From a virus (Duplodnaviria > Heunggongvirae > Uroviricota > Caudoviricetes), in IMG/VR virus record IMGVR_UViG_2913167280_000003, positions 1 through 64,000 of that record: a DNA stretch of 64,000 bases, one strand, 5' to 3'. Positions 57,339 to 57,996 of the stretch are shown piece after piece. The notes below the pieces were generated by a model, which did not search any database, had not been told where the DNA came from, and saw nothing but the letters and a program-made list of their open reading frames with translations. The stretch's first letter is position 1, and every line of letters begins with the position of its first letter. Position numbers and translations under genes: made by a program.

Positions 57339-57505
57339 ATCGCCTCAATGAATCGTGATTTATAGAGCGATTTAGCTGTTAGCCGCGACAGGCGCGGCGG
57401 TAAGCATGGCTGGGCCTAGTCTTCCCAGACAAACCACCGAGTTGCCAGGTTGACCATGCGCCTAAGTGGCAACACCGAAGTGCGTAACGAGCTTCCATCC
57501 AGTTT

Positions 57506-57530
57506 GCCCATCTTCGGGTGGGCGTTTTTT
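57506..57530 (+). terminator. Rho-independent terminator
   Basis: GCCCA-TCTTCGGG-TGGGC followed by GTTTTTT. Confidence 0.65.
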
Positions 57531-57996
57531 CAGGGTTTTCGTCATGGTTAGCGACTTTGCGGCGGTTTAGAAACTGACCATTAAAGTAAATGCAAACGAT
57601 GATCTGATGATGGTAGCGGCCTAAGAAGCCTGACGCCACGGGGTATGAGTCGTCCCCCGTCAAAAAATCGACCGCAGAGTGTCCCCGTCTGTGTATTAGG
57701 GAACGGGGAGGCATAACAGGCAAGGGCGCTGGTTCGATTAACCAGATGAGCGAGAAGGGGCCATCTCTTTGGTCAGCGTCCTTACCTGTTACGTCCTTTT
57801 TCATTCGGCGTAACAGCAATTGCTTTTAGTAATTTGAGGATAATTTCTTACTACGGGTATATCCCGTCATGCTGAAAGCGCTAATCACGCTGGAAGCCAG
57901 GGTTATGCATCCCCTGTTACCGAATTGCAGCTAGGGCGCGGTGCGCCGAAAAGCATACGGAGGTGGAAGCCCTCGCCGGAGACGTACCCGGCAAGT

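Follow-up and report, generated by a model that had tools for sequence, protein, structure and literature searches.

What does the interval between dmt and the tRNA genes encode in the tailed phage (Caudoviricetes) of the IMG/VR record IMGVR_UViG_2913167280_000003? Positions 1 to 64,000 of that record were analysed and are called the window hereafter, and an earlier note on positions 57340-57996 had described a hairpin-rich sequence poor in reading frames, proposing one or more small RNAs (sRNAs) under C1 control or the degraded remains of tRNA genes. By sequence comparison, as the note had recommended, the interval was found to be 93.5% identical to positions 68665-69373 of phage P1 (NC_005856), from dmt to trnA, and the dmt-trnA interval of P1, P7, SJ46, RCS47, D6 and several hundred P1-like plasmids showed 91-97% identity to it. 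Across this stretch, the annotation of P1 shows the bipartite operator of C1, Op72ab, together with the Pban promoters at the dmt end, then a 'dicF-like region', about 450 unannotated nucleotides and finally trnA. For this reason the interval is taken, by homology, as the untranslated 5' part of the C1-controlled (C1-repressed) ban operon of a P1-like phage, and the position assigned to it by the note, 3' of the bipartite C1 operator, agreed with the P1 annotation, which puts it directly 3' of that operator and of the ban promoter. It is made up of three parts: a leader, a tag module, and then a long hairpin and tRNA-like structured modules leading into the tRNA genes. The second part, of about 180 nt (57533-57712), is homologous to the body of transfer-messenger RNA (tmRNA), from which it is taken to descend, and 178 of its 180 positions are the same in P1, where the tag frame lies at 68944-68976. 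Its elements are the following:

57533-57591, + strand: 5' block of the tag module, made up of GUUUUCG (57535-41), a short, variable hairpin, UGCGG (57558-62, invariant), GAAAC (57570-74), a linker rich in A and the U(-5)A(-4) that precedes the resume codon; defined by alignments, a fold like tmRNA pseudoknot 1 (PK1) being possible.
57592-57624, + strand: tag frame of tmRNA type, GCA AAC GAU GAU CUG AUG AUG GUA GCG GCC UAA (ANDDLMMVAA and stop), without a start codon; defined by sub-threshold Rfam tmRNA alignments and codon conservation.
57611-57672, + strand: helix around the stop codon (H5-like) and pseudoknot a (PK2 homologue), with the stem 57638-43/57655-60 and the loop GUCG (57649-52) pairing with CGAC (57669-72); defined by compensatory changes.
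57675-57712, + strand: pseudoknot b, in which CAG (57675-77) pairs with CUG (57689-91) in the loop of the stem CCCCGU (57683-88)/ACGGGG (57703-08), the loop motif being UGUAUUAG here and UGUGAUUAAUAA in most other phages; defined by covariation.

The tag frame was followed in two pattern scans of IMG/VR, one anchored on the frame and the other on the 5' block only. Codons 1-3 were part of the pattern in the frame-anchored scan, which makes their invariance in it uninformative; the other scan left them free. Both scans combined gave a total of 110 distinct arrays with 32 distinct frames and 19 peptides, and all 32 frames had exactly ten codons and a stop. The peptides, which included ANDDLMMVAA, ANDDVVLMAA, ANDDLMLMAA, ANDEQFLAVA, ANEEMYLAVA, ANEERFLMAA and ANDSEVLMAA, followed the pattern A-N/K-D/E-x-x-hydrophobic-L/M-x-A/V-A. 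Among the ten codons, 6, 5 and 9 sites were variable at codon positions 1, 2 and 3, respectively, with 11, 7 and 19 extra alleles, and the synonymous changes found were GCA/GCU, AAC/AAU, GUU/GUA/GUC, CUG/UUG, GAA/GAG and GCN, one lineage having GCU AAU GAU in place of GCA AAC GAU. Moreover, 104 of the 110 sequences presented an in-frame stop 4-8 codons upstream of the frame, with no ATG, GTG or TTG between them, and one-base indels 5' of the tag frame disrupted any longer frame. Judged on these sequences, the module has the internal, start-less tag frame with a resume codon and a stop that characterizes tmRNA, its C-terminal degradation signal being putative.

Upstream of the frame, which starts at 57592, A(-4) was invariant across the 110 distinct sequences, and 108 of them had U(-5). 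The nucleotides that set the tag frame in E. coli tmRNA are U85/A86 (PMC2481249), and the conserved pair corresponds to them, giving the module the frame-setting nucleotides of tmRNA. The Rfam scan that the earlier note had suggested, run permissively (E <= 1) on 56500-60500, gave weak matches to permuted and beta-proteobacterial tmRNA over 57495-57662, in which the alignment rests on UAAAU and the tag frame, and none to DicF. The Rfam models tmRNA_permuted, beta_tmRNA and alpha_tmRNA aligned to the tag region at every locus tested, always under the gathering score. In particular, the beta_tmRNA alignment ran from the upstream UAAAU over the frame and through the first pseudoknot, the UACCAAAU linker included, and on that account this pseudoknot is considered the PK2 homologue. 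By eye, the 5' block resembles nt 13-36 of E. coli tmRNA. An 11-mer, GUGGAAGCCCU, apparently common to 57962-57972 and PK3 of E. coli tmRNA, and putative 7-nt loop complementarities to the host tmRNA were set aside as possible chance matches.

Helices were found by inspection and a hairpin search. The hairpin CCCCGT...ACGGGG of the earlier note proved real, but it corresponds to two separate elements (57638-43/57655-60 and 57683-88/57703-08), each with compensatory changes in other phages. For pseudoknot a, eight stem variants (ACGGGG/CCCCGU, GCAAGG/CCUUGU, GUGAGG/CCUCAU, GUCAGGG/CCCUGAU and others) and four loop-pairing variants (the tetramers GUCG/CGAC, CCGA/UCGG, CCAG/CUGG and CCAA/UUGG) were complementary throughout, while pseudoknot b covaried in its CAC/GUG, CAU/AUG and CAG/CUG pairings and in the stems GCCC/GGGC, CCCUGA/UCAGGG and GGCGGGAG/CUCCCGCC. 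Across 18 diverse sequences, 93.9% of the cells were paired compared to 33-49% with slid partners, and compensatory changes were found in 10 of 25 pairs, the observed values being matched by 0 of 500 shuffles. The outer helix around the stop codon and the two downstream pseudoknots are backed by compensatory changes; the 5' helix GUUU/AAAC scored low in the 18-sequence count from misalignment and is invariant anyway, and the PK1-like CUUUG/CAAAG pairing was complete in 98 of 110 sequences vs. 16 expected, with near-zero covariation. PK4 was not found in the module, the downstream pseudoknots being two. A P1-specific pairing with CCGCAGAG, seen in the minimum-free-energy fold, was rejected, as it clashes with the covariation-backed pseudoknots and was not seen elsewhere.

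A covariance model built from T1-like and DS8-type sequences only, with no P1-like sequence, had a single match in the 64-kb window (57530-57703, 105.6 bits, E = 2e-24) and also recovered all the other lineages. In the cross-family alignment, which was fitted to this model, helices 2-4 were 98-100% paired, with eight compensated pairs. The alignment of 73 sequences with MAFFT and RNAalifold showed little structure, the lineages being out of register, and the hand-defined helices and the model-based alignment were used instead. The hairpin-rich character noticed previously was borne out for 57534-57996, with a folding energy of -174.3 kcal/mol vs. -150.9 +/- 6.9 in dinucleotide shuffles (z = -3.39; 0 of 100 shuffles equal), while the folding of the leader (57345-57535) was unexceptional relative to shuffles (z = -1.18).

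Among P1-like elements, no other segment of the interval varies as little as the tag module. Over 39 of them, the diversity (pi) was 0.008 in the tag frame, 0.021 in the pseudoknots and 0.036 in the 5' block, compared to 0.176 in dmt, 0.13 in the leader and 0.18 at 57794-57860; the low pseudoknot diversity is not explained by the search pattern, because the latter spans only about 30 nt. A natural partial deletion was found in an 81.8-kb IMG/VR contig (L024) with a P1-type module at 2290-2443, where other sequence stands in place of the 5' block and pseudoknot a is lost, the frame being kept. A fragment of the 5' block appears about 1.3 kb away in the same contig, at 986-1017.

The module is not restricted to P1-like phages. 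A sensitive BLAST search with the interval found 57534-57725 to be 70-85% identical to intergenic DNA of unrelated phages, namely Ackermannviridae (Vi01-like), Schitoviridae (ECBP1), Drexlerviridae (T1-like), Deseoctovirus and Aeromonas phage pIS4-A. With the module only as the query, a total of 288 phage records were matched (94 of Klebsiella, 84 of Salmonella, 70 of Escherichia and others), the carriers being T1-like, N4-like and Vi01-like phages and lambdoid prophages. Furthermore, of 5426 complete E. coli genomes, 670 carried the module (582 plasmid and 152 chromosomal locations), and when one representative genome per species was scanned, true matches were confined to Enterobacterales. 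All the neighbouring tRNA genes were co-oriented with the module (127 of 127, in 116 arrays). None of the matched records carried an RNA annotation of the module, which was either unannotated or covered by a 'hypothetical protein'. Coding sequences with this label lie over it in phage SJ46 (KU760857 / NC_031129) and in some PGAP and phage records, and they are probably spurious calls on structured RNA. In Cronobacter phage CS01, protein genes follow directly 3' of the module. In a lambdoid prophage of the E. coli STEC306 chromosome (L188, 2142-3244), 1.1 kb of non-coding DNA separates the Q antiterminator and its terminator from the holin gene, and this gap is filled by the tag module and three stem-closed modules. 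In Stx phages, tRNA genes and stx occupy this Q-holin position. Expression in the L188 prophage would be late and Q-dependent, in contrast to the C1-controlled expression in P1.

Compared to standard one-piece tmRNA (SsrA, RF00023), the module shares the GCA resume codon with U-A at -5/-4, a start-less frame of the form A-N-D...A-A-stop, a tag of ten residues as in the E. coli ANDENYALAA, the stop codon within a helix and H-type pseudoknots after the frame. It differs in having no acceptor stem with G3:U70, no adjacent T arm and no CCA, in a PK1 that is rudimentary at best, in only two downstream pseudoknots, in its scores (14-29 bits vs. gathering scores of 47-84) and in lying within a phage operon leader/tRNA array rather than forming a free-standing gene, and its tags end in MAA, VAA or AVA, not LAA. 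Its best-scoring Rfam alignments were those to the two-piece permuted tmRNAs of alpha- and beta-proteobacteria and cyanobacteria (RF01849-51, RF04321), whose message domain works tethered to the tRNA domain on one side, through base pairing of separate pieces; in those, however, both tRNA halves are encoded adjacently with CCA, and no such pair was found here, the hairpin 5' of the module being a UUCG terminator with a U-tract and not a T arm with CCA.

Generally, tmRNA is regarded as an indivisible tRNA-plus-mRNA hybrid. The natural exceptions known keep the tRNA half, as do the fragment of mycobacteriophage DS6A and tag-less organellar forms (PMC11915505). The DS6A sequence is hardly more than the tRNA-like domain of tmRNA, and a similar molecule strongly inhibits tmRNA, perhaps by titration of SmpB (PMC4131195, PMC11915505). 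Both DS6A and the present module are thus phage-borne partial tmRNAs, but of opposite halves, since DS6A has the tRNA-like domain without a tag frame and the module has the tag frame and pseudoknots without a tRNA-like domain. The phage tmRNAs named in the tmRNA database papers are mainly those of mycobacteriophages, Bacillus phage G and the DS6A form, and the newer of these papers counts 79 phage sequences, the remainder being unnamed (PMC11915505, PMC4131195). No 'Phage__' sequence identifiers were found in the supplements of the tmRNA database paper, and the literature searches turned up no description of a tmRNA-like element in P1, T1-like, N4-like or Vi01-like phages.

The leader that precedes the tag module contains the following features:

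57311-57338, + strand: Op72ab (Obanab), the bipartite operator for C1, which overlaps the Pban promoters where dmt ends; placed by positional homology to P1 NC_005856 68667-68694, the window sequence being ATTGCTCTAATAAATTTATTAGTGTAAT.
57345-57530, + strand: predicted ban-operon leader RNA of about 185 nt, ending at the intrinsic terminator; from the P1 promoter/operator positions, the terminator scan and the fold (z = -1.18).
57383-57477, + strand: conserved structured segment, whose homologue in Qin lies right before DicF (ydfC-dicB intergenic), with about 79% identity to K-12; it corresponds to the annotated 'dicF-like region' of P1.
57505-57530, + strand: intrinsic terminator, UGCCCAUC-UUCG-GGUGGGCG and then U6, occupying the place of the DicF body in Qin.

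The strong terminator reported in the earlier note was recovered as a rho-independent one on the transcribed strand, with an 8-bp stem and a UUCG loop (57505-57524) followed by T6 (57525-57530), about 165-190 nt 3' of Op72ab, and a terminator consensus scan gave two overlapping calls vs. 0.8 expected. From the positions of promoter and terminator, Pban would give rise to a terminated RNA of about 185 nt. The suggestion of C1-controlled small RNAs may hold for this terminator-bounded first segment, where it is deduced from the positions of promoter, operator and terminator, and does not hold for the most conserved 180 nt, which are a tmRNA-derived tag-template module and not an ordinary base-pairing sRNA.

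A segment similar to 57383-57477 (about 79% identity) was present in 4388 of 5426 complete E. coli genomes. In the Qin prophage of K-12 (L127), the homology covers 701-797 and the Rfam DicF match 822-873. The DicF locus of Qin (dicA-ydfABC-dicF-dicB) thus resembles the leader in the segment directly 5' of DicF and in the terminator-ended short RNA that follows in both, but the 53-nt DicF sequence is not in the window, where a short UUCG hairpin terminator is the only element of the P1-type sequence at that position; no match to DicF (RF00039) was obtained in 56500-60500 at E <= 1, compared to 76.7 bits for K-12 with the same model. As only the segment 5' of DicF is homologous and the DicF body is missing, the 'dicF-like' label of P1 is read, on this comparison, as denoting the pre-DicF leader and not DicF. 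This pre-DicF segment, found in about 80% of complete E. coli genomes, is unannotated, and both 57383-57477 and its K-12 Qin counterpart could form a candidate pseudoknot, with GCAUGG pairing with CCAUGC inside the loop of GUUGCCA/UGGCAAC, plus an inner CUGGG/CCCAG hairpin.

Beyond the tag module, the 3' third and the adjoining tRNA locus contain these features:

57714-57791, + strand: long hairpin of about 18 bp, UAACAGGCAAGGGCGCUG/CAGCGUCCUUACCUGUUA, with an apical insert (arms 57714-57732/57774-57791); from the P1-like consensus fold; in most phages, a module of this type comes after the tag module.
57810-57920, + strand: predicted stem-closed multi-hairpin domain, loosely cloverleaf-like, closed by GUAACAG (57810-16) and CUGUUAC (57914-20); from a consensus fold over 26 P1-like sequences, in which informative substitutions were few.
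57935-57992, + strand: three terminal hairpins, GGCGC-GGU-GCGCC (57935-47), GAGG-UGGAAGC-CCUC (57960-74) and GCCGG-AGACGUAC-CCGGC (57975-92); from the consensus fold.
57997-58500, + strand, outside the interval: tRNA-Thr(UGU) gene split after the anticodon stem by a 407-nt insertion with an HNH endonuclease open reading frame (ORF) at 58049-58468; from ARAGORN with introns allowed and thresholds of 70%.

A helix of at least 12 bp followed pseudoknot b in 91 of 110 distinct arrays, in many covarying versions with hypervariable apical inserts, some of which bear canonical T arms. The segment 57794-57860 was hypervariable among P1-like elements, and the hairpin 57975-92 resembles, at the motif level only, the GCCGGAGAUCAGCACCGGC hairpin that closes T1-like arrays. 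Inside 57340-57996, ARAGORN called no tRNA at its default or 90% thresholds and only implausible intron-containing ones at 70%, while the sole match of the Rfam tRNA model was at 58004-58060, outside the interval and under the gathering score. The alternative of degraded tRNA genes thus applies loosely to the 3' third, with its stem-closed tRNA-like modules, of which the types shared with other phages bear canonical T arms, and not to the tag module, which is no tRNA remnant. At the split tRNA, the inserted ORF matched phrog_2255 (HNH endonuclease, E = 6e-39), default ARAGORN called no tRNA at 57997-58500, and no group I intron was matched at E <= 1; P1 has intact trnA (Asn) and trnT at this place.

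Past the split tRNA, a module at 58558-58660, of a type identical to that following the tag module, presents the form 'CACAAC-A ... A'-GUUGUGG', with a long closing helix, a canonical T arm at the apex (GUAGAG-UUCGACU-CUCUAC) and another hairpin, and it is near-identical to modules in the lambdoid prophage L188 and in a P1-like IMG/VR array (L103). Modules flanking the tag module in many phages, such as this one, resemble the YrlA-type Y RNAs in their long closing helix and, often, an apical T arm and a D-arm-like hairpin. The likeness is one of architecture, an analogy only, with no Rfam match and no sequence similarity established. The YrlA of M. smegmatis can be cleaved by RNase P and can receive CCA (PMC4201824). 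On the + strand, an ORF from about 58677 has an N-terminus (MKKKHLLIAGDVLFALVALSLCD...) that resembles a lipoprotein signal peptide. In the arrays 120-450 nt 3' of the tag frame (L106, L113, L114, L121, L062, L072, L068, L049 and others), close relatives that share the promoter and the tag module differ entirely in the apical inserts of the stem-closed modules, the closing helices of which covary. Such arrays look like cassette-like hypervariable sets of tRNA-like RNAs, frequently with genuine tRNA genes at their end. Another conserved non-coding block, AGUCCAGACGAUAUCUGAGUGACUWUAAAAACAGAUGG-GAGC(C)AGGUGGAAWCCCUG(G)C, was found about 250-400 nt 3' of the tag frame in phages of different families (ECBP1, L004, about 1950-2010; DS8, L006, about 1900-1960; L066), with a window relative, GGAGGUGGAAGCCCUCGCC, at 57958-57976. 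Moreover, the prophage sRNA family STnc100 of Rfam was matched about 1.1 kb 3' of the tag module in a Vi01-like contig (L111, 1118-1331; 48.7 bits, above gathering) and right after DicF in K-12 (L127, 871-1080; 34.4 bits, below gathering). This suggests that the phage non-coding arrays share several module families.

What, then, would the tag module do? Its homology to tmRNA, structure, coding-type conservation and distribution are shown by the data, and we give about even chances to the preferred proposal that it acts in trans-translation as an alternative tag template, by a path of transcription, processing and template use that we infer as follows. Rightward transcription from Pban would produce a polycistronic non-coding RNA running into the tRNA genes, with the leader terminator releasing a short RNA and attenuating read-through. 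The flanking long helices, tRNA-like elements and tRNAs would mark the precursor for cleavage by RNase P, RNase E and RNase III, by which the tag RNA would be excised. It could then engage SmpB, ribosomal protein S1 and the stalled ribosome as an alternative template, and stalled peptides would acquire at their C-terminus a tag specified by the phage instead of ANDENYALAA. Since the P1-type copy has no tRNA-like domain, delivery to the ribosome would need a tRNA-like partner, and the RNA might pair with a phage tRNA-like module or with host tmRNA-SmpB. More tentatively, and with the odds against it, these RNAs may represent a widespread, so far unannotated class of tmRNA-derived RNAs without the tRNA half in enterobacterial phages including P1, still used to reprogram trans-translation with phage tags (ANDDLMMVAA, ANDDVVLMAA, ANEEMYLAVA and others).

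Several results weigh against a role as template or set the module apart from tmRNA. The Rfam gathering scores were not reached (24.1 bits vs. 47 for RF04321 and 13.6 vs. 84 for RF01850, and likewise at related loci). Default ARAGORN, its permuted search included, returned no tmRNA call for the window or for any of 116 related arrays. The tRNA-like domain of tmRNA (a 7-bp acceptor from both ends, G3:U70, an adjacent T arm, a discriminator A and CCA) was not found in the searches of the window and related arrays; none is recognisable in the P1-type copy, although its absence is not proven for every lineage, and for lack of it the module falls outside tmRNA as defined. At thresholds of 80-90%, ARAGORN reported the right tag with tRNA halves inconsistently placed between lineages, and the relaxed call in the window hinges on a GGUUCGAUU loop that is specific to the window and not in other P1-like copies. 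The candidate acceptor stems of lytic phages had U3-A70 or C3-G70, with no G3:U70 and mostly no encoded CCA. A conserved long-range partner for the 5' block was sought with RNAduplex (CUUUGCGG against 700 nt downstream) and rejected, a different site being obtained in each lineage. The known mechanism admits to the A site only RNAs with an aminoacylatable end, and template use is therefore putative. Finally, a terminator stands between Pban and the module, the promoter scan showed no sigma-70 consensus promoter 3' of this terminator, and the partly deleted copy in L024 indicates that the module is not essential. Two further placements of a tRNA-like domain were tried and discarded: global acceptor closure, plausible in some lytic phages, is not general and is absent from P1-like elements; and an alanine-identity acceptor at the apex of the long hairpin (C1-G72, A2-U71, G3.U70, A73) has the G.U in many T1-like versions but G-C in P1-like elements and L114, and where the apex bears a T arm, the domain is oriented as in an ordinary tRNA and not permuted.

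The main rival to use as a template is a decoy, in which a tmRNA body devoid of its tRNA part would sequester SmpB, ribosomal protein S1 or RNase R and thereby damp host trans-translation while the phage grows, as a mirror image of DS6A. We hold this to be unlikely; it fits the missing tRNA half and not the codon-level conservation. The module keeps the U85/A86, PK2 and PK3 elements that are tied to contacts with S1 and SmpB (PMC2481249), and the inhibition of tmRNA by a DS6A-like molecule offers a precedent; a decoy, though, would not need an exact ten-codon frame with its stop, nor amino acids conserved with synonymous third positions, and it leaves GCU AAU GAU for GCA AAC GAU unexplained. 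Another explanation, to which we assign a small probability, holds that the tmRNA is complete, with a tRNA-like domain that is hidden or supplied in pieces, an acceptor-like stem (UGUGGUG ... CACCACA-A) with a T arm closing the array in lytic phages and, in P1-like elements, the partner strand lying elsewhere or being supplied by neighbouring tRNA-like modules. ARAGORN at 90% called standard-topology tmRNAs in ECBP1 (a 293-nt call whose resume codon is at nt 90, the E. coli position) and in L110, L114 and L066. In several DS8-type and Drexler-type arrays, a strand 5' of the module, UGUGGUG or UGUGGCG, is complementary to a CACCACA or CGCCACA immediately 3' of a T arm or T-arm-like hairpin, this 7-bp match including one compensatory change (U-A to C-G) and one encoded A-CCA end, and minimum-free-energy folds pair those ends. 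Yet the DS8-type 5' strand is inside a strong promoter-like TTGACA-17-TAGATT spacer and is, because of that, probably untranscribed; the strand is also duplicated beside the T arm, permitting a purely local tRNA-like fold, and the missing G3:U70, the protein genes directly after the module in CS01 and the lack of an equivalent in the P1-like interval count further against it.

Readings that dispense with trans-translation fare worse. Ordinary C1-controlled base-pairing sRNAs of the DicF kind, with or without degraded tRNA genes, as the earlier note had it, would agree with the terminator-ended leader homologous to the dicF locus and with the tRNA-like modules; the absence of the DicF body, the alignment of the conserved core to tmRNA and its coding-type conservation make this improbable. 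Still less credit is given to a functionless, decaying remnant of a captured ssrA, the region being then a structured leader/attenuator of the ban/tRNA operon. The gene ssrA is often the integration site of mobile elements (PMC11915505), and the missing tRNA-like domain and the partly deleted copy in L024 would suit decay, but the module is the segment that varies least among the 39 P1-like elements and has been retained, with its frame length intact and with compensatory changes, by virulent phages from unrelated families. Besides, duplicates made at an integration site would hold the 3' tRNA end of ssrA and not the tag region. As for a protein, the absence of a convincing coding frame claimed in the earlier note was upheld, the longest + strand ORFs within 57340-57996 having 33-34 aa, and the only long one was indeed antisense (57379-57819, 146 aa). 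Some records do annotate hypothetical proteins here. Nevertheless, the antisense ORF varies from 60 to 150 aa over 37 distinct P1-like variants and has no Pfam or PHROG family match, and is therefore not a gene, while a conventionally initiated small peptide over the tag frame (e.g. AUG CAA ACG AUG AUC UGA, in the +1 frame) differs by lineage in length (5, 7 or 9 aa) and sequence, the tag frame itself having no start codon. A coding role is thus barely credible.

Under either use, as template or as decoy, a conserved, structured and coding-constrained message half without the tRNA half is the missing reciprocal of the DS6A-type exceptions. If the module serves as a template, it would represent an undescribed delivery mode in ribosome rescue, by which phages would choose the fate of the host and phage proteins stalled in infection. 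If it serves as a decoy, it would be a new RNA-based phage route to shut off a host quality-control pathway. Either way, content is given to a stretch of P1 that has been blank since 2004 and to the intergenic DNA of hundreds of therapeutic-phage genomes (T1-like, Vi01-like and N4-like), in which the covariance model lets annotators find the module.

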